Both the position numbers and the translations under genes were made by a program. 64,000 nucleotides of DNA from contig CBDBOV010000006.1 of assembly GCA_965208575.1 (NCBI GenBank), forward strand, positions 672,001 to 736,000, given 5' to 3'. Below are positions 2,883 to 27,854 of this stretch, in pieces (positions within the stretch are counted from its first letter, which is position 1; each line of letters begins with the position of its first letter). The DNA is from Spirochaetia bacterium (GTDB taxonomy: Bacteria > Spirochaetota > Spirochaetia > SZUA-6 > Bin103). The notes beneath the pieces are model-generated. The model did no database searches and was not told the DNA's origin. It saw nothing but the letters and a program-made list of their open reading frames with translations.

Positions 2883-4091
2883 CAGCCCCTGACGTGGTGT
2901 TTCCGCCACCATACACGGAGCAGGTTTGAGCGGAAGACCAATCGCCGATCGCCTTCAACCACGTATCCGTCAGCCTTCAGGTCGCGCAGTACCGACTGGA
3001 ATGTCGGCTCACTCCCCCTGCTCAGTCGTCCAAGGTCTGACAGGCGAACACCATCGCGGTTCCGACAGGCGAAGCCAAGAATGGAGCGCGCCATCGCGTG
3101 TTCCTGCTCATCTAGTGCAAGTTCAAGGCGCTTCTCGTAGTGGTCCAGGTGGGCGGTCCCGCTCTGTCCAGCGAGTCTCTCGCCGAAACAACGATCGATC
3201 GTTTCCGGCGACACCAGCGATGAGTTCCCTCTACACTCGTCGCAAAGCGTCGAGACGAAGAGTTGCACATGGTACGGAACGGGGTCGACCAGCAGGTCCA
3301 GGATGCGAGCGATTGACTGGTCACCGAGCCGGAAGTCGATGTCGTACCCGAGTTTGTGGAGGAACTGGGCAGCGGTAGAGCGGTCCCACGGGTCGACGCG
3401 GAACGGGACGAGGTCGTTGATCGTTGCCGACAGCCCGGCACGCCGCAGAATTCCCTCCAGTCCAATGGAGCCGCCAACTAACGTGTGGATCGTACCGCGC
3501 ACCCCCGCCGCCTGCCGCCATTGCCGGAGCCGAGAAAGCAGGAGATCGGCTTCGCTGCTTCGGTCGCCATAGCGGAGCATGCGCGAAATCAGAATCGGCA
3601 ACTCGTCCAAGATGATCAGTAGTCTGCGGCCGTCGGGAGCGACACTGATTAGCCGATCCTGTAGCTGAGTCGCGACGCGATCCCACTCGCGGCCGATCGC
3701 CCGTTTGAGTTCCACTCGCAACACGCCGACATCGACGTTGGCCGACATGCCGTCCAGTACACTCTTGATGGCGCCCGAAAATGGGATGGCCTCGAAGCGT
3801 GTTCGATACCGGGAGTCGGCCGCCAACGCGGCAAGCATGGCCGCCACGCAATCTTCCGGGCCGTCACCACCCTCCACGTCGACGTTGATGACGAGCCAGT
3901 TGTTCCTCGGTGACCGGTGGAGTTCCAGCATCAGGCTGGTCTTGCCAACACGCCGGGGTGCGAGCATTAGCCCGAGGTTTGAGAGGCCGTTCTTGTAACT
4001 GTTTACTATTACAGGAATTAGCGTGTTCATGGGTGTAAATCGTGTCCATGTAAATAGTCCTGTGGTTCAGCGTTAATTTTCTCTCATCTGG

Positions 4092-4121
4092 TTGACATGT
4101 AATTATTAAATGATCTACCAT
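4092..4121 (+). promoter_or_regulatory. sigma70-type promoter of the transposase
   Basis: TTGACA (4092-4097), 18-nt spacer, TACCAT (4116-4121), shortly upstream of ATG 4140. Confidence 0.65.
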
Positions 4122-4139
4122 TCCCTCCGTAGGGTGCCC

Positions 4140-5870
4140 ATGTACATCGACACCGTCCCCAACCGCAACTCTCCCCCAGCCGTCCTCCTCCGCGAGTCCT
4201 TCCGCCAGCACGGCAAGGTCAAAAAACGCACCATCGCCAACCTCTCCAAGTGGCCCGATCACCTCGTCGAGGGTTTGCGCGTCCTCCTCAACGGCGGTAT
4301 CGCTCTGCGCTCTCCCAACGAACTGCTCTCCATCTTGCGCAGCTATCCCCACGGCCACGTCGCCGCCGTCCTCGGTTCCCTCCGCAAGCTCTCCCTCCAT
4401 TCCCTCGTCGCTCGTCCCGCCTCCCGTGAACGCGACCTGGTCGTCGCCATGATCGTCGCTCGCGTCGTCGACGCTCGCTCCAAACTCGCCACCGCTCGCG
4501 GCCTGAACCCCGAAAGCGCCGTCTCCTCCCTCGGCCACCTGCTGCAGTTGGGAGCCGTCGACGAGAATGAGCTGTATGCCGCCATGGATTGGCTGCTCGC
4601 TCGCCAGCACGGCATCGAGCAGCGCTTGGCCAAGCGCCATCTGCATGACAACACGCTCATGTTGTACGACCTGACTTCCAGTTACTTCCATGGCCACACC
4701 TGCCCGTTGGCGCGCCGTGGTCACAGCCGCGACGGCAAACGCGGCACCTTGCAGATCGTGTTCGGCCTGCTGTGTACCGCAGACGGCTGTCCCATCGCCG
4801 TCGAGGTATTCGAGGGCTCCACCAGTGACCCCAAGACGGTCGCCGCTCAGGTCGACAAGATTCGCAACCGTTTCGGCTTGCAGCGCGTCGTGCTGGTCGG
4901 CGACCGCGGCATGCTCACCGGCGCGCGCATCCGCGAGGACCTGCAGGGGATCGACGGCCTGCGCTGGATCACGACCCTGCGGGCGCCCACCATCCGCAAG
5001 CTGATCGAGGCCGGCGAAGTGGCGCAGACCATGTTCGACGAGCGTGACCTGGCGGAGATCAGCTCACCCGAGTTCCCCGGCGAGCGGCTGATCGTGTGCC
5101 GCAACCCGATCCTGGCCGAGCAACGGCAGCGCAAGAGGCAGAAGTTGCTGGCCTCCACGGAGGAGGAACTGACGCCGATCGTGACGGCCACGCAGCGCGC
5201 CAAAAAGCCGCTGCGCGGCGCCGCCGCGATCGGCCTGCGGGTGGGCAAGGTGATCAACCACTACAAGGTGGGCAAGCATTTCACCACCACCATCACCGAC
5301 GACTCGTTCTCGTTCGTGCGTGACCTGGACAAGATCGCGGCCGAGGAAGAACTGGACGGGCTCTACATCGTGCGCTCCAACGTGGAGCCGGAGCTGTTCG
5401 ACGCCGAGCAGACGGTGACGGCGTACAAGGATCTGGCCAAGGTGGAGCGCGCCTTCCGCAGCATGAAAACGGTGGATCTGAAGGTGCGACCGATCTATCA
5501 CCGCAGTGCTGACCGGGTGCGGGCGCACGTGTTCCTGTGCATGCTGGCCTACTACGTGGAGTGGCACATGCGCAGCAAGCTGGCGCCGGTGCTGTTCGAC
5601 GACCACGACCGCGCCGCCGGCGAGGCGCTGCGCGAGTCGGTGGTGCAACCGGCGGAACGCTCACCGGCCGCACACCGGAAGGCGGCGAGCAAGCGTACCG
5701 ACGACGGTCTGCCGGTGCACAGCTTTCGCAGCCTGATGAGCGAGTTGGGGACGCTGACGGCCAACCGCGTGCGGATAGTGGATAGCGGCGCCACGTTCAC
5801 CATGCACAGCGAACCGACCGCGCTGCAGCAGCGCTGTTTCGATCTCCTGGAGGTCAGCGCCCAAGTGTAG
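4140..5870 (+). CDS. IS1634-family DDE transposase
   Basis: YDLTSSYF, GHSRDGK, VGDRGM, VERAFRSMK, RVRAHVFLCMLAY motifs; start MYIDTVPNR follows the promoter. Confidence 0.95.
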   Translation: MYIDTVPNRNSPPAVLLRESFRQHGKVKKRTIANLSKWPDHLVEGLRVLLNGGIALRSPNELLSILRSYPHGHVAAVLGSLRKLSLHSLVARPASRERDLVVAMIVARVVDARSKLATARGLNPESAVSSLGHLLQLGAVDENELYAAMDWLLARQHGIEQRLAKRHLHDNTLMLYDLTSSYFHGHTCPLARRGHSRDGKRGTLQIVFGLLCTADGCPIAVEVFEGSTSDPKTVAAQVDKIRNRFGLQRVVLVGDRGMLTGARIREDLQGIDGLRWITTLRAPTIRKLIEAGEVAQTMFDERDLAEISSPEFPGERLIVCRNPILAEQRQRKRQKLLASTEEELTPIVTATQRAKKPLRGAAAIGLRVGKVINHYKVGKHFTTTITDDSFSFVRDLDKIAAEEELDGLYIVRSNVEPELFDAEQTVTAYKDLAKVERAFRSMKTVDLKVRPIYHRSADRVRAHVFLCMLAYYVEWHMRSKLAPVLFDDHDRAAGEALRESVVQPAERSPAAHRKAASKRTDDGLPVHSFRSLMSELGTLTANRVRIVDSGATFTMHSEPTALQQRCFDLLEVSAQV

Positions 5871-6065
5871 CCAGTAACGGACATCGGCTGTTGAGCGCAA
5901 TTTTCAGATCAATAACGAATTAACAAGATTCCCGCTCTGGAACTTCGGATTAGCACGTGCTCGCCTTGGTCGAAGCGCTCCCACAGGCGGGCAAGCTCGT
6001 AGTCTCGCCCGAAGAGGTCGTCGCCTACGACCGCTTGACCGATGATGTTCCTCACTCAAACAAGA

Positions 6066-23009: not shown

Positions 23010-24035
23010 TCAGCGGGACTCGCCGCCGCGCAGGTAGCGGCTGGCGCGGTATTCGTCGACCCACTGGCGCGTGCTGCGCCAGTGACCGTCTGACCCGCGC
23101 GTAGCGCGGAGCCGGCCGCGCTTCGCCGCCGCCCGCAGCGCCGCTCCCTTGAGATCGGGAGTCTCCAGTGCGGCCAGGGGGACGAGTCGGGCCGGGCCGG
23201 CTACGGCAGGTATGACGAACCGATGCAGGCTGGCCAGAATCGATCGCGCCAGCATCTCCCCGAGCGGTCCCGGGTCCCCCTCGTCCGCACGGTGCAGAGC
23301 ACGGAGATAGCGCGCCCGGTCGCGCTTGTAGATGACGGCGGGCGGGCAGCCGAGCCGGACGAGGATGAGATTGAGTACGAGTCGCCCGGTTCGGCCGTTG
23401 CCGTCCAGGAAAGGATGGATCTGCTCGAATCGGCAGTGGGTCCGGGCCAGCGCCTCGGGAAACGCCGTCCGGGTCGCATTGAGGGAGTTGACCGTGTCCA
23501 GCCAGGTATTCATCTCCGCGGAAATGAGCGGCCATGTGACGGGAATCATGCCACGTGAGAAGGGATGGATGTCATGTTCTCGGAAGCTGCCGGGACTCTC
23601 CCGTTGCGTTGCATCCGGATGCGGCGCCACCTGCCAAACCGGCTGCATGGCCTGATGGTGCACGTTACGGACTTCGGCCAGCGTCAGGATTTCCTCGGCG
23701 TGGGAGAGCCCGTCCCGGCTGATCGCCTGCCGGTACACCCAGTCCGCGGCATCGGCGTAGCCGCGCACCTCCAGGTACTCGCGCAGCTCCTTGTTGCCGA
23801 CTGCCCGGCCCTCGTCGAGAAGACGCTCGACCTGTTTCAGAACCAGGGTGTTGCCTTCGATCGCCGTCGAGTGGTGGACTTCCTCGTACCATATGCCACG
23901 CCAGATACCGTCGGCCTCGGCCGGGCTCGGCAGTCCCCCCATGCGTTCCCGCAGTTCCCGTATCTGGGTGTCGACCCGCCGGTACACGTCCGCACGCCGC
24001 GGTCGGCCGCGTCCGGGGGAAATGTGTTCGCTCAC
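23010..24035 (-). CDS. Fic-family adenylyltransferase with N-terminal inhibitory helix and C-terminal HTH-like domain
   Basis: Intact HPFLDGNGRTGR motif; STAIEGN inhibitory motif; C-terminal AALRAAAKRGRLRA...HWRST resembles an excisionase/MerR-type HTH. Confidence 0.9.
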   Translation of the reverse strand: MSEHISPGRGRPRRADVYRRVDTQIRELRERMGGLPSPAEADGIWRGIWYEEVHHSTAIEGNTLVLKQVERLLDEGRAVGNKELREYLEVRGYADAADWVYRQAISRDGLSHAEEILTLAEVRNVHHQAMQPVWQVAPHPDATQRESPGSFREHDIHPFSRGMIPVTWPLISAEMNTWLDTVNSLNATRTAFPEALARTHCRFEQIHPFLDGNGRTGRLVLNLILVRLGCPPAVIYKRDRARYLRALHRADEGDPGPLGEMLARSILASLHRFVIPAVAGPARLVPLAALETPDLKGAALRAAAKRGRLRATRGSDGHWRSTRQWVDEYRASRYLRGGESR

Positions 24036-24085: not shown

Positions 24086-26062
24086 CCGAAGTTCCAGAGC
24101 GGGAATCTTGTTAATTCGTTATTGATCTGAAAATTGCGCTCAACAGCCGATGTCCGTTACTGGCTACACTTGGGCGCTGACCTCCAGGAGATCGAAACAG
24201 CGCTGCTGCAGCGCGGTCGGTTCGCTGTGCATGGTGAACGTGGCGCCGCTATCCACTATCCGCACGCGGTTGGCCGTCAGCGTCCCCAACTCGCTCATCA
24301 GGCTGCGAAAGCTGTGCACCGGCAGACCGTCGTCGGTACGCTTGCTCGCCGCCTTCCGGTGTGCGGCCGGTGAGCGTTCCGCCGGTTGCACCACCGACTC
24401 GCGCAGCGCCTCGCCGGCGGCGCGGTCGTGGTCGTCGAACAGCACCGGCGCCAGCTTGCTGCGCATGTGCCACTCCACGTAGTAGGCCAGCATGCACAGG
24501 AACACGTGCGCCCGCACCCGGTCAGCACTGCGGTGATAGATCGGTCGCACCTTCAGATCCACCGTTTTCATGCTGCGGAAGGCGCGCTCCACCTTGGCCA
24601 GATCCTTGTACGCCGTCACCGTCTGCTCGGCGTCGAACAGCTCCGGCTCCACGTTGGAGCGCACGATGTAGAGCCCGTCCAGTTCTTCCTCGGCCGCGAT
24701 CTTGTCCAGGTCACGCACGAACGAGAACGAGTCGTCGGTGATGGTGGTGGTGAAATGCTTGCCCACCTTGTAGTGGTTGATCACCTTGCCCACCCGCAGG
24801 CCGATCGCGGCGGCGCCGCGCAGCGGCTTTTTGGCGCGCTGCGTGGCCGTCACGATCGGCGTCAGTTCCTCCTCCGTGGAGGCCAGCAACTTCTGCCTCT
24901 TGCGCTGCCGTTGCTCGGCCAGGATCGGGTTGCGGCACACGATCAGCCGCTCGCCGGGGAACTCGGGTGAGCTGATCTCCGCCAGGTCACGCTCGTCGAA
25001 CATGGTCTGCGCCACTTCGCCGGCCTCGATCAGCTTGCGGATGGTGGGCGCCCGCAGGGTCGTGATCCAGCGCAGGCCGTCGATCCCCTGCAGGTCCTCG
25101 CGGATGCGCGCGCCGGTGAGCATGCCGCGGTCGCCGACCAGCACGACGCGCTGCAAGCCGAAACGGTTGCGAATCTTGTCGACCTGAGCGGCGACCGTCT
25201 TGGGGTCACTGGTGGAGCCCTCGAATACCTCGACGGCGATGGGACAGCCGTCTGCGGTACACAGCAGGCCGAACACGATCTGCAAGGTGCCGCGTTTGCC
25301 GTCGCGGCTGTGACCACGGCGCGCCAACGGGCAGGTGTGGCCATGGAAGTAACTGGAAGTCAGGTCGTACAACATGAGCGTGTTGTCATGCAGATGGCGC
25401 TTGGCCAAGCGCTGCTCGATGCCGTGCTGGCGAGCGAGCAGCCAATCCATGGCGGCATACAGCTCATTCTCGTCGACGGCTCCCAACTGCAGCAGGTGGC
25501 CGAGGGAGGAGACGGCGCTTTCGGGGTTCAGGCCGCGAGCGGTGGCGAGTTTGGAGCGAGCGTCGACGACGCGAGCGACGATCATGGCGACGACCAGGTC
25601 GCGTTCACGGGAGGCGGGACGAGCGACGAGGGAATGGAGGGAGAGCTTGCGGAGGGAACCGAGGACGGCGGCGACGTGGCCGTGGGGATAGCTGCGCAAG
25701 ATGGAGAGCAGTTCGTTGGGAGAGCGCAGAGCGATACCGCCGTTGAGGAGGACGCGCAAACCCTCGACGAGGTGATCGGGCCACTTGGAGAGGTTGGCGA
25801 TGGTGCGTTTTTTGACCTTGCCGTGCTGGCGGAAGGACTCGCGGAGGAGGACGGCCGGGGGAGAGTTGCGGTTGGGGACGGTGTCGATGTACATGGGCAC
25901 CCTACGGAGGGAATGGTAGATCATTTAATAATTACATGTCAACCAGATGAGAGAAAATTAACGCTGAACCACAGGACTATTTACATGGACACGATTTACA
26001 CCCATGAACACGCTAATTCCTGTAATAGGAAACAGTTACAAGAACGGCCTCTCAAACCTCGG
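24086..26062 (-). mobile_element. IS1634-family insertion sequence, copy 2 (1977 bp)
   Basis: Same ends as copy 1, inverted; direct repeat ATTAAT at 24080-24085 and 26063-26068. Confidence 0.95.
24164..25894 (-). CDS. IS1634-family DDE transposase
   Basis: Translation identical to copy 1 in the ORF track. Confidence 0.95.
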   Translation of the reverse strand: MYIDTVPNRNSPPAVLLRESFRQHGKVKKRTIANLSKWPDHLVEGLRVLLNGGIALRSPNELLSILRSYPHGHVAAVLGSLRKLSLHSLVARPASRERDLVVAMIVARVVDARSKLATARGLNPESAVSSLGHLLQLGAVDENELYAAMDWLLARQHGIEQRLAKRHLHDNTLMLYDLTSSYFHGHTCPLARRGHSRDGKRGTLQIVFGLLCTADGCPIAVEVFEGSTSDPKTVAAQVDKIRNRFGLQRVVLVGDRGMLTGARIREDLQGIDGLRWITTLRAPTIRKLIEAGEVAQTMFDERDLAEISSPEFPGERLIVCRNPILAEQRQRKRQKLLASTEEELTPIVTATQRAKKPLRGAAAIGLRVGKVINHYKVGKHFTTTITDDSFSFVRDLDKIAAEEELDGLYIVRSNVEPELFDAEQTVTAYKDLAKVERAFRSMKTVDLKVRPIYHRSADRVRAHVFLCMLAYYVEWHMRSKLAPVLFDDHDRAAGEALRESVVQPAERSPAAHRKAASKRTDDGLPVHSFRSLMSELGTLTANRVRIVDSGATFTMHSEPTALQQRCFDLLEVSAQV

Positions 26063-26144: not shown

Positions 26145-27854
26145 GTGAGCAACGCCAGCCCCTCCCCGGACCCGGACCCCGCCGCAGAGGCGTCCGACTT
26201 CATTCGCAAGGCGATCCGCGAAGACCTGGCCGCCGGCCGTTTCGACCGCGTGCAGACGCGCTGGCCACCGGAGCCGAACGGCTACATCGGCATCGGTCAC
26301 GCCAAGGCGATCACCCTCAACTTCGACGTCGCGCGCGAGTTCGGCGGTTTCTGCAGCCTGCGCTTCGACGACACCAACCCGGAGCGCGAGAAGCTGGAGT
26401 ACGTGGAGTCGATCAAGGAGGACATCCGCTGGCTCGGCTTCGACTGGGGCGGGCACGAGTACTACGCCTCCGACTACTACGAACGCCTCTACGAGCTGGC
26501 CGAGCAACTGGTCGAGCAGGGCGACGCCTACGTGGACAGCCTGACGGCACAGCAGATCAGCGAATACCGCGGCGTGCCCACCCGTCCGGGACGGGAGAGC
26601 CCGGATCGCACCCGCCCGCCCGCCGACAGCCTCGACCTGCTGCGCCGCATGCGTGCCGGCGAGTTCGCCGACGGCGCCTGCGTGCTGCGCGCCCGCATCG
26701 ACATGGCGTCGCCCAACCTGAACCTGCGCGACCCGGTGATGTACCGCATCCGGCGCGCCCGCCACTACCGCACCGGCGACGCCTGGTGCATCTACCCGAT
26801 GTACGACTGGGCGCACGGCCAGAGCGACTCGATCGAGGGCGTTACCCACTCGCTGTGTTCGCTGGAGTTCGAGAACAACCGCCCGCTGTACGACTGGTAC
26901 CTGGACAAGCTCGGCATCTTCCACTCCCGGCAGATCGAGTTCAACCACCTCAACGTCGGATTCGCCGTCCTGCACAAGCGCATCCTGCGCCGCCTGGTGG
27001 CGGACGGCACCGTGCGCGGCTGGGACGACCCGCGCCTGCTCACGCTGCGCGGCCTGCGCCGGCGCGGCTACACCCCCAGCGCCATCCGCGCCTTCGTGCG
27101 CAGCGTCGGCCTGACCAAGACCACGGTGCTGATCAGCTACGCGCAACTGGAGTACTACCTGCGCCAGGAACTGAACCGCACCGCGACCCGGGTAATGGCG
27201 GTGCTCGACCCGCTGCGGGTGGTCATCACCAACTATCCCGAGGGACAGACCGAGCAGGTGGAGGTGGAGAACAACCCCGAAGACCCGGACGCCGGCACGC
27301 GCAAGCTGCCGTTCAGCCGCGAGCTGTACGTCGAGCGCGGCGACTTCCTGGAGCAGGCGCCGCGCAAGTTCTTCCGCCTGTCGCCGGGCCGCGAGGTGCG
27401 CCTGAAGGGCGCCTACTACATCACCTGCGACGAGGCGGTGAAGGATGGCGACGGACGCGTGACGGAGCTGCGCTGCAGCTACGACCCCGCCTCGCGCGGC
27501 GGCGGCACCGCGGATGGCCGGCGGGTGCGCGGCACGCTGCACTGGGTATCCGCCGAGCACGCCCGCAACGCCGAGGTGCGCCTCTACGATCACCTGTTCA
27601 CCACCGAGAACATGAACGAGGTGGAGCACGACGACCTGGCCGCCCACCTGAACCCCCGCTCCGAGGTGGTCCTGACCGGCTGCAAGGTGGAACCGGGCCT
27701 CGCCGCGGCGCACCCGGAGCAGATCTTCCAGTTCCTGCGCCACGGCTACTTCGTGGTGGACAACCGCGATTCCCGTCCCGGTGCGCCGGTGTTCAACCGC
27801 TCGGTGGGCCTGCGCGACACCTGGGCGAAGGTGCAGCGCGCCGGTCGGCGCTGA
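26145..27854 (+). CDS. glnS: glutamine--tRNA ligase with atypical signature motifs
   Basis: PPEPNGY, LRFDDTNP, YPMYDWAHGQSD, GWDDPRL, GTLHWVS, FQFLRHGYF; native GTG start probably 26145. Confidence 0.93.
   Translation: MSNASPSPDPDPAAEASDFIRKAIREDLAAGRFDRVQTRWPPEPNGYIGIGHAKAITLNFDVAREFGGFCSLRFDDTNPEREKLEYVESIKEDIRWLGFDWGGHEYYASDYYERLYELAEQLVEQGDAYVDSLTAQQISEYRGVPTRPGRESPDRTRPPADSLDLLRRMRAGEFADGACVLRARIDMASPNLNLRDPVMYRIRRARHYRTGDAWCIYPMYDWAHGQSDSIEGVTHSLCSLEFENNRPLYDWYLDKLGIFHSRQIEFNHLNVGFAVLHKRILRRLVADGTVRGWDDPRLLTLRGLRRRGYTPSAIRAFVRSVGLTKTTVLISYAQLEYYLRQELNRTATRVMAVLDPLRVVITNYPEGQTEQVEVENNPEDPDAGTRKLPFSRELYVERGDFLEQAPRKFFRLSPGREVRLKGAYYITCDEAVKDGDGRVTELRCSYDPASRGGGTADGRRVRGTLHWVSAEHARNAEVRLYDHLFTTENMNEVEHDDLAAHLNPRSEVVLTGCKVEPGLAAAHPEQIFQFLRHGYFVVDNRDSRPGAPVFNRSVGLRDTWAKVQRAGRR

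Follow-up and report, generated by a model that had tools for sequence, protein, structure and literature searches.

Introduction

The first histidine of the HIGH signature is among the most conserved positions in aminoacyl-tRNA synthetases of class I (PMC10485003). In leucyl-tRNA synthetase (LeuRS), the NE2 atom of this histidine binds the beta-phosphate of ATP together with the second lysine of the KMSKS loop, which does so through both side chain and backbone, and the signature's fourth histidine and the same lysine bind the alpha-phosphate (PMC9424281). The closest described departure is IleRS2, a housekeeping class I enzyme in which the first histidine is naturally glycine or alanine; a histidine elsewhere replaces its NE2 group, the catalytic efficiency of the natural variant is similar, and that of engineered variants is reduced by up to 10-fold (PMC10485003). 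For bacterial glutaminyl-tRNA synthetases (GlnRS), the two motifs have been written HI/LGH and T/MSK (PMC1865053). Here we describe a GlnRS in which both are rewritten. It is encoded by the glnS gene in a 64,000-nucleotide stretch of a Spirochaetia bacterium genome (assembly GCA_965208575.1, contig CBDBOV010000006.1, positions 672,001 to 736,000), and this whole stretch is called the window below.

The KMSKS-type loop is also where Hip kinases act: HipA phosphorylates S239 of GltX, and HipT phosphorylates S197 of TrpS, a modification that is abolished by the substitution S197A (PMC6581861, PMC7029023). An earlier note on the window, made from its DNA letters alone, had drawn attention to the two altered motifs; it proposed that a histidine had been exchanged between them, with possible immunity to Hip-type kinases or to inhibitors that mimic the adenylate.

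Results

A GlnRS with two altered signature motifs

The glnS gene, for glutamine--tRNA ligase, occupies 26145..27854 on the forward strand; it starts with a GTG codon at 26145, encodes 569 amino acids and is recognized by TIGR00440, NF011291 and Pfam models. In profile searches the product scores 663.3 bits against TIGR00440, above the cut-off of 425.8, which places it in that family, and 808 bits against NF011291. The latter match ends at profile position 561 of 769, before the YqeY part of the model, so that the C-terminal YqeY domain is absent, unlike in the GlnRS of Deinococcus (PMC1865053). The class I Glu/Gln catalytic domain (PF00749) and both anticodon-binding domains (PF03950 and PF20974) are present.

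Compared with canonical GlnRS of known structure (E. coli 1qrs and 4jyz; P. aeruginosa 5bnz), the protein is 51-54% identical over its full length and is predicted to share their four-module fold. An AlphaFold model, built on a 51-sequence alignment (A1) and having a mean predicted local confidence (pLDDT) of 91.6, matches these structures with template-modelling (TM) scores of 0.91-0.98 and root-mean-square deviations of 1.3-2.1 Å; for 4jyz, which holds E. coli GlnRS with ATP and tRNA, the Foldseek values are TM 0.93/0.98 and 1.3 Å. A paralogue of the GluQRS/YadB type, with a role outside translation and consisting of the catalytic domain alone, was considered as an identity for the protein and rejected, as the corresponding models match residues 84-196 only, at 27-60 bits against cut-offs of 250-453, and the window's protein has full anticodon-binding domains.

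The altered HIGH signature, GIGH, lies at 26289..26300 (GGC ATC GGT CAC; the G49 codon GGC is at 26289-26291), and the altered KMSKS-type loop, VLHKR, at 26967..26981 (GTC CTG CAC AAG CGC; the H277 codon CAC is at 26973-26975), both on the forward strand. Two further departures accompany them on that strand: TRWPP at 26256..26270, in which W40 aligns with E. coli F31, and EFNHL at 26937..26951, in which N267-H268 align with E. coli S259-R260. The earlier note had listed all four, and all were found again at these places in the raw sequence, with GIGH and VLHKR in the frame of the listed open reading frame.

The alignment with E. coli GlnRS (1qrs) is gapless and sets G49 against H40, H52 against H43 and W40 against F31; within the loop, L276, H277, K278 and R279 correspond to M268, S269, K270 and R271, and N267-H268 and N244 correspond to S259-R260 and D235. 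In E. coli numbering the window's enzyme therefore differs from the canonical one by H40G, S269H, M268L, F31W, L39I, S259N, R260H, D235N and P291L. The signature no longer reads HI/LGH, its first histidine being gone, and in the T/MSK loop serine has become histidine and methionine leucine, with the lysine and arginine kept. The fourth histidine of the signature (H52), the catalytic loop lysine (K278) and R279 are all retained. More widely, the residues at E. coli R30, E34, H43, Y211, C229, Q255 and K270 are as in the canonical enzymes; those at R30, E34, Y211, C229 and Q255 are also constant in A1, in which R39, E43, H52, K54, Y220, C238, Q263, E265, K278 and R279 of the window's protein do not vary. 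We take R30, Y211, Q255 and C229 of the E. coli enzyme to be residues of the glutamine pocket. By every structural and sequence criterion applied here except the two signature motifs, the predicted protein is a GlnRS.

Single copy, constraint and independent confirmation

The genome (6.5 Mb in six contigs, 95% complete) contains one full-length GlnRS match, the next best being the glutamyl-tRNA synthetase (GluRS) at 27% identity; the second, canonical glnS that the earlier note had asked about is not present in it. GlnRS was found in 35 of 41 related genomes, including all 24 of the family to which the window belongs (f1), which comprises the window's genus (g1, 11 genomes with the window's) and a sister genus (g2, 13 genomes). 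The six genomes that lack it are located elsewhere in the order. One relative, G003, has two GlnRS genes (C5:7773018-7774721 and C5:2384169-2385869; L020 and L174), sharing 95% and 91% identity with that of the window; both read GIGH/LHKR.

Sequencing error, which would have dissolved the observation, is excluded, because the same motifs occur in nine other genomes of the genus, in the second G003 copy and in contigs from an independent run. Both motifs are spanned, without any difference from the window, by contigs of what is probably the source run. An independent run labelled as a sponge metagenome (X5) yielded contigs that are 96-99% identical, with no difference in a motif codon among the rows listed. 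Contig recruitment at 85% likeness also drew in GlnRS genes of other organisms, so joints and loose ends in it are cross-organism artefacts and its uncovered bins are uninformative. Contigs from two RNA libraries (X19 and X20), at approximately 93-96% identity, span both motif regions.

The gene is under purifying selection, and the earlier note's description of an otherwise well-conserved GlnRS holds. The pairwise ratio of nonsynonymous to synonymous substitution (dN/dS) relative to the window's gene is 0.12-0.21 in nine of nine within-clade pairs, the anticodon-binding domains included. The codons of G49 (GGC) and H277 (CAC) are constant in the ten GIGH or GLGH sequences of g1, the window's among them, while the flanking codons vary synonymously. 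The GlnRS of the window is neither an error nor a decayed paralogue.

Distribution of the motif states

The main alignment comprised 150 sequences, namely the window's protein, 29 loci and 120 database proteins, the latter being the best 120 of more than 8000 scored homologues. The combination of GIGH or GLGH with [VI]LHKR was found in all 23 sequences of one clade, which extends to 67% identity with the window's protein; apart from the window's protein, its members reading I-G-[IL]-G-H and [VI]-L-H-K-R are nine other g1 loci (89-96% identity), P0001-P0012 and P0022. The same motifs occur in 13 more members of the P0003 cluster, in a metagenome locus (L138) and in the second G003 copy. Across the 150 sequences, the first position of the HIGH signature and the serine position of the loop were occupied, respectively, by H and S in 93, H and G in 28, G and H in 23, N and G in three, H and H in two, and G and S in one.

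Outside the clade the first histidine is invariant in 121 of 121 aligned GlnRS. It was likewise retained by every one of the 78 other-phylum GlnRS loci that could be parsed, a background sample 55-65% identical to the window's protein, where the signature reads HIGH in 73, HVGH in three, HLGH in one and HLGS in one; the loop position in these loci is serine in 75 and glycine in one, and could not be parsed in two. No G-x-G-H in a GlnRS context was found in 400 other genomes of the phylum, many of which may have no GlnRS. A metagenome scan with the pattern PEP[NS]G[YF]xGxGH gave zero matches with L, V or F before the glycine and one with any residue, L138, which belongs to the clade; since a known JGI sequence, P0013, escaped these scans, their power is low and they reveal little about how rare the motif is. 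Searching the database a second time, with P0013 as the seed, added no clade members among the best 120 matches. Of the relatives, one named cluster member (P0121) is labelled Spirochaetaceae bacterium, and the nearest canonical relatives are labelled Spirochaetota. The lineage is placed by these labels together with the near-identical contigs of the sponge-labelled run X5.

In the searchable literature, 'GIGH' paired with aminoacyl-tRNA synthetase gave no match, and when further natural departures from the HIGH motif were looked for, IleRS2 was the sole relevant report; a search for the atomic contacts of GlnRS H40, S269 and K270 returned nothing usable. As judged from the sequences gathered here, a single-copy, constrained GlnRS without the first HIGH histidine, with intermediates nearby, is a genuine rarity.

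Relative ages of the changes

In two quick maximum-likelihood trees of GlnRS, the sequences having glycine in the signature and histidine in the loop form one clade, the main GIGH/LHKR group. This group joins a small subclade within a well-supported clade (99*). In the small subclade, P0013 (PGIGH/TFSKR) is basal to sequences with PHIGH/TFGKR and [P/S]NIGH/TFGKR, and the GlnRS of one g1 genome, G002, is placed there rather than in the main group. In the sister genus g2, EYNHL accompanies LHIGH/MTGKR.

A separate clade of 19 TRWPP sequences mostly reads IH[IL]GH/[LQM]SKR. Two of its members, P0203 and P0211, have TRWPPEPNGYI-YLGH-IR with a QSKRR loop, and their tyrosine represents an independent loss of the first histidine. 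The TRW variant itself was present in 63 of 235 collected proteins, and residues other than histidine at the first HIGH position (G, N or Y) were seen in TRW backgrounds only, with none among the sequences examined that have F at the E. coli F31 position.

Because TRWPP and the N-H of EFNHL are shared with relatives that keep HIGH, both pre-date GIGH. The earlier note had presented the four changes together; GIGH and LHKR are fixed across the main clade, but TRWPP and EFNHL are older and the four are not one event. A second clade-specific change falls in a column that does not vary elsewhere: L299 (27039..27041, forward strand) stands in place of E. coli P291, and all 121 sequences outside the clade have proline there.

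tRNA-Gln and the amidotransferase route

The genome encodes tRNA-Gln(UUG) and tRNA-Gln(CUG), both with U1:A72, G2:C71 and G73, which is presumably the identity set of tRNA-Gln. The 60 tRNAs reported by ARAGORN also include a tRNA-SeC, a tRNA-His whose anticodon is ATG and two tRNA-like sequences with odd anticodon loops.

A GlnRS that was catalytically impaired or repurposed could be tolerated if Gln-tRNA-Gln were made by GluRS and GatCAB instead, and the earlier note had called for a search for gatCAB. A gatA-like gene (476 bits, cut-off 481), gatB (521 bits) and a gene resembling aspartyl- and asparaginyl-tRNA synthetases (AspRS and AsnRS) stand in a row at C6:1473364-1477565 of the window's genome, G000 (L009, L017 and L051). 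The presence of the first two leaves such a route open in principle; six members of the order have no GlnRS at all, so the indirect route does occur in this group. They can, however, be attributed to asparagine. The AspRS/AsnRS-like gene beside gatB scores 215 bits on the asnS model, with a true AsnRS located elsewhere in the genome, and neither asnA nor asnB was found in the genome (the best asnB score is 25 bits against a cut-off of 267). GatCAB standing beside an extra AspRS-like gene and serving tRNA-dependent asparagine formation is the arrangement of Deinococcus and Thermus, which the window's genome resembles in having GlnRS together with GatA and GatB, the additional AspRS/AsnRS-like gene and no detected asnA or asnB. 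The missing asnA and asnB and the adjacent AspRS-like gene point to the same use here, and GatCAB probably serves tRNA-dependent asparagine synthesis.

The specificity of GluRS does not help to decide the matter. The residue aligned with T. thermophilus GluRS R358, where we take arginine to indicate discrimination, is arginine in 39 of 39 GluRS, and since these include the six genomes without GlnRS, the position is uninformative.

Parallel changes in GluRS

The single GluRS of the window's genome (G000:C4:1165893-1167377; L048/L140) is also altered in both motifs, where it has HVGN instead of HxGG and KLGKR instead of KLSKR; its KLGKR aligns with the KLSKR or KISKR of solved GluRS structures. 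Among 39 genomes, HxGN with KL[G/A]KR was found in 12, namely ten of the 11 g1 genomes together with G035 and G040, which belong to another family and have HIGN with KLAKR. HxGN with KLSKR (G009) and HxGG with KLAKR (G032) occurred once each, and HxG[G/S] with KLSKR in the remaining 25, including all 13 of g2. The loop serine is thus gone in ten of 11 g1 genomes, replaced by glycine in seven and alanine in three, and a change in the HIGH motif accompanies its loss in two lineages.

Tryptophanyl-tRNA synthetase (TrpRS) is canonical, with HxG[HN] and KMSKS, in 29 of 29 parsed loci; one of 30 could not be parsed. With GlnRS and GluRS altered and TrpRS canonical, the motif change in the genus is specific to the two Glx enzymes. 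What is new here, as read from the motifs, is that the GluRS of the genus is also altered in both and that its TrpRS is canonical.

Genomic context of glnS

The open reading frame listed for glnS began at 26004, but this start was rejected: it lies inside an insertion sequence (IS), and the first 21-34 residues that it adds match 24 other places in the genome. The spurious N-terminal extension, giving a 616-amino-acid open reading frame, arises because the IS end reads in frame into glnS. The true start is most likely the GTG at 26145, 83 bp 3' of the IS end; the product predicted from it has 569 residues, as does its close homologue P0001.

The IS is a 1976-bp element of the IS1634 family on the reverse strand at 24086..26061, between fic and glnS, with its transposase gene at 24164..25924 (reverse strand; NF033559, 324 bits). 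Three close relatives (L020-L022) have the empty site, and the target ATTAAT has been duplicated where the element inserted. In all, 29 full-length copies of it occur in the genome, 24 of at least 99.3% identity and five of approximately 95%, and this number of near-identical copies points to a recent burst. A second copy in the window lies at 3973-5948. No promoter-like site was found between the IS end and glnS in a scan with a sigma-70 model, which is itself uninformative for a spirochaete.

Divergent from glnS is a gene for a Fic-domain protein (23010..24035, reverse strand; PF02661, 62.6 bits), which bears the motif HPFLDGNGRTGR and weakly matches 'mobile mystery protein B', below threshold (46.6 bits against a cut-off of 124.4). 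The earlier note allowed that this neighbour might be coincidental; the adjacency is confined to the four closest relatives (L019-L022), and no functional link to glnS was found. The other neighbours are ordinary, comprising genes for Nudix, Hsp20, Fe-ADH and M19 dipeptidase proteins and efflux genes, and no biosynthetic cluster is found among them.

Discussion

Two key questions are raised by this enzyme: (i) how the function of the first HIGH histidine is provided once the residue is lost; and (ii) what drove the change. The nearest precedent for the first is IleRS2. There, position 3 of the same motif carries the replacement histidine, which clashes with mupirocin (PMC10485003). The window's GlnRS shares with IleRS2 the natural glycine at position 1 of a housekeeping class I enzyme; it differs in that position 3 is glycine rather than histidine and in that the candidate histidine is in the KMSKS-type loop. 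It does not, therefore, belong to the G/AXHH type. By analogy it may work in the manner of the IleRS2 swapped-motif class without being a member of it.

On balance we favour the view that the gene specifies an active housekeeping GlnRS of a high-GC Spirochaetota lineage whose ATP site has been remodelled by a histidine swap. The first histidine would normally contact the beta-phosphate of ATP beside the second lysine of the KMSKS loop, and this contact would be lost in the GIGH clade. H277, which directly precedes the catalytic lysine in the mobile loop, would supply it instead. Such an exchange would be the inter-motif counterpart of the intra-motif exchange of IleRS2 (HXGH to G/AXHH). It may have become possible because a background of F31W, L39I, R260H and P291L had already relaxed the constraint on the first histidine. 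In sister lineages, the first histidine would have given way to other hydrogen-bond donors, asparagine or tyrosine, and a loop histidine would not be needed. The distribution is consistent with this scheme, for glycine at the first position is combined with loop histidine in 23 of 24 distinct sequences, P0013 (PGIGH with TFSKR) being the exception, and the possible donors N and Y accompany glycine or serine in the loop.

Several observations weigh against the proposed exchange. The co-variation that the earlier note had envisaged is complete within the main clade, where GIGH and LHKR co-occur in 23 of 23 sequences, but strict co-variation fails elsewhere: there are GlnRS with GIGH and FSKR (P0013), NIGH and FGKR, YLGH and QSKR, and HIGH and LHKR (P0091 and P0105). 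From P0013, and from P0091 and P0105, it follows that neither change needs the other. The joint state may also represent one evolutionary event, and with only three to four independent contrasts a sign test for co-variation is without power (median p 1). The RNA-library contigs are a weak hint of expression in relatives and could come from DNA carry-over. The proposal would also be undercut if selection on GlnRS were relaxed by a redundant route through transamidation, although we regard this as unlikely.

The main rival to a histidine swap draws on the same observations. In a W31 background the first histidine may be dispensable, and H40G and S269H may be unrelated, nearly neutral changes that hitch-hiked to fixation and have been kept since by ordinary constraint. 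It is in keeping with this that the first position varies (G, N, H or Y) in two TRW clades and is never non-histidine in F31 sequences, that three of the altered signatures lack the loop histidine while HIGH with LHKR occurs twice elsewhere, and that the tree requires a minimum of four changes at HIGH position 1 and six at the loop position. We consider such permissive drift possible, yet the less probable account. Asparagine and tyrosine can donate a hydrogen bond and glycine cannot, and it is the state without a side chain that is paired with the loop histidine, P0013 apart; in addition, H277 is constant across a clade that extends to 67% identity. With moderate confidence, we conclude that a histidine swap is the most likely mechanism and that permissive drift is its main rival.

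With regard to the second question, a speculative scenario, which we put forward as unlikely, is that a sponge-associated genus has rebuilt the ATP sites of both its Glx synthetases under pressure from HipA kinases or from an unknown ATP-site inhibitor; in GlnRS the histidine would have left the HIGH helix for the KMSKS-type loop, and in GluRS the HxGG would have become HVGN and the loop serine been lost. If HipA were the agent, loss of the loop serine in GlnRS and GluRS would confer target-site immunity and the HIGH changes would be secondary. The serines phosphorylated by HipA and HipT (KLS239KR of GltX and KMS197KS of TrpS; PMC6581861, PMC7029023) occupy the same loop position, which is serine in canonical GlnRS; the histidine of the window's enzyme could not be phosphorylated by a Ser/Thr kinase. 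HipA-like genes are frequent in the family: HipA_C was found in 20 of 24 f1 genomes, with one to six matches each, as opposed to two of the 17 other genomes of the order. Three full-length genes of the HipA family lie in the window's genome (C2:566650-567270, C5:1086277-1086993 and C3:440484-441158; L135-L137), and the one inspected is overlapped by an upstream helix-turn-helix gene in a hipBA-like pair. Moreover, every f1 GlnRS lacks the loop serine, having H, or G in g2, and the serine of GluRS has been replaced in g1 by both glycine and alanine.

The distribution across relatives does not fit this idea well. The association is confounded by phylogeny and may reflect one or two events. Genus g2 has as many HipA genes, yet its GluRS reads KLSKR in 13 of 13 genomes; the GluRS serine is lost (KLAKR) in G032, G035 and G040, none of which yielded a HipA match; and G026 and G028 carry HipA with a canonical GlnRS, the GluRS of G026 also being KLSKR. 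KMSKS is retained in every parsed locus of TrpRS, which is known to be targeted by a Hip kinase, and GlnRS is not named as a Hip target in the literature found. The link between HipA abundance and serine loss is thus suggestive but weak, and we regard escape from HipA as improbable. Of the earlier note's proposal of immunity to Hip kinases or adenylate mimics, the abundance of HipA and the loss of the GluRS serine speak in favour and the mismatched distribution against, and the proposal is speculative.

Resistance to a natural product of the habitat, one mimicking ATP or the aminoacyl-adenylate and acting on both Glx enzymes, seems more doubtful still. It would account for the parallel changes in GlnRS and GluRS of one genus that spare TrpRS, and the occurrence of near-identical contigs in the sponge-labelled run X5 is in keeping with it. 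The signature change of IleRS2 gives approximately 1000-fold resistance at little catalytic cost (PMC10485003). No biosynthetic cluster, however, accompanies glnS, and because HIGH position 3 remains glycine, the mechanism of IleRS2, a steric clash, is not applicable here. We know of no natural inhibitor of GlnRS or GluRS, although no search was made for one.

That the enzyme is catalytically impaired or repurposed, with GluRS and GatCAB supplying Gln-tRNA-Gln, is very improbable given the low dN/dS over its whole length including the anticodon-binding domains, the retention of the glutamine-, tRNA- and Lys270-type residues, the alternative explanation of GatCAB through asparagine synthesis and the presence of GlnRS in all 24 genomes of the family.

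Finally, we note what these enzymes may reveal about class I synthetases. Until now, the documented natural exception to the first histidine in a housekeeping enzyme has been IleRS2, where the change gives antibiotic hyper-resistance. GlnRS of the present type would be a second and mechanistically different exception, in a single-copy enzyme flanked by the intermediates NIGH, YLGH, PHIGH and GIGH with serine. These variants form a natural mutational path along which to ask which activation contacts are essential and how the signature loops co-evolve, and they serve as a natural experiment on how far the class I active site is indispensable. The parallel changes in GluRS and the abundance of HipA make target-site immunity to toxin-antitoxin kinases directly testable with a few proteins; escape from HipA, if true, would make this the first instance of natural target-site immunity to Hip toxins. 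If the ATP sites of the two Glx enzymes have indeed been rebuilt as outlined, the GlnRS of this genus would provide the first example of the relocation of a catalytic residue between motifs in a class I synthetase.

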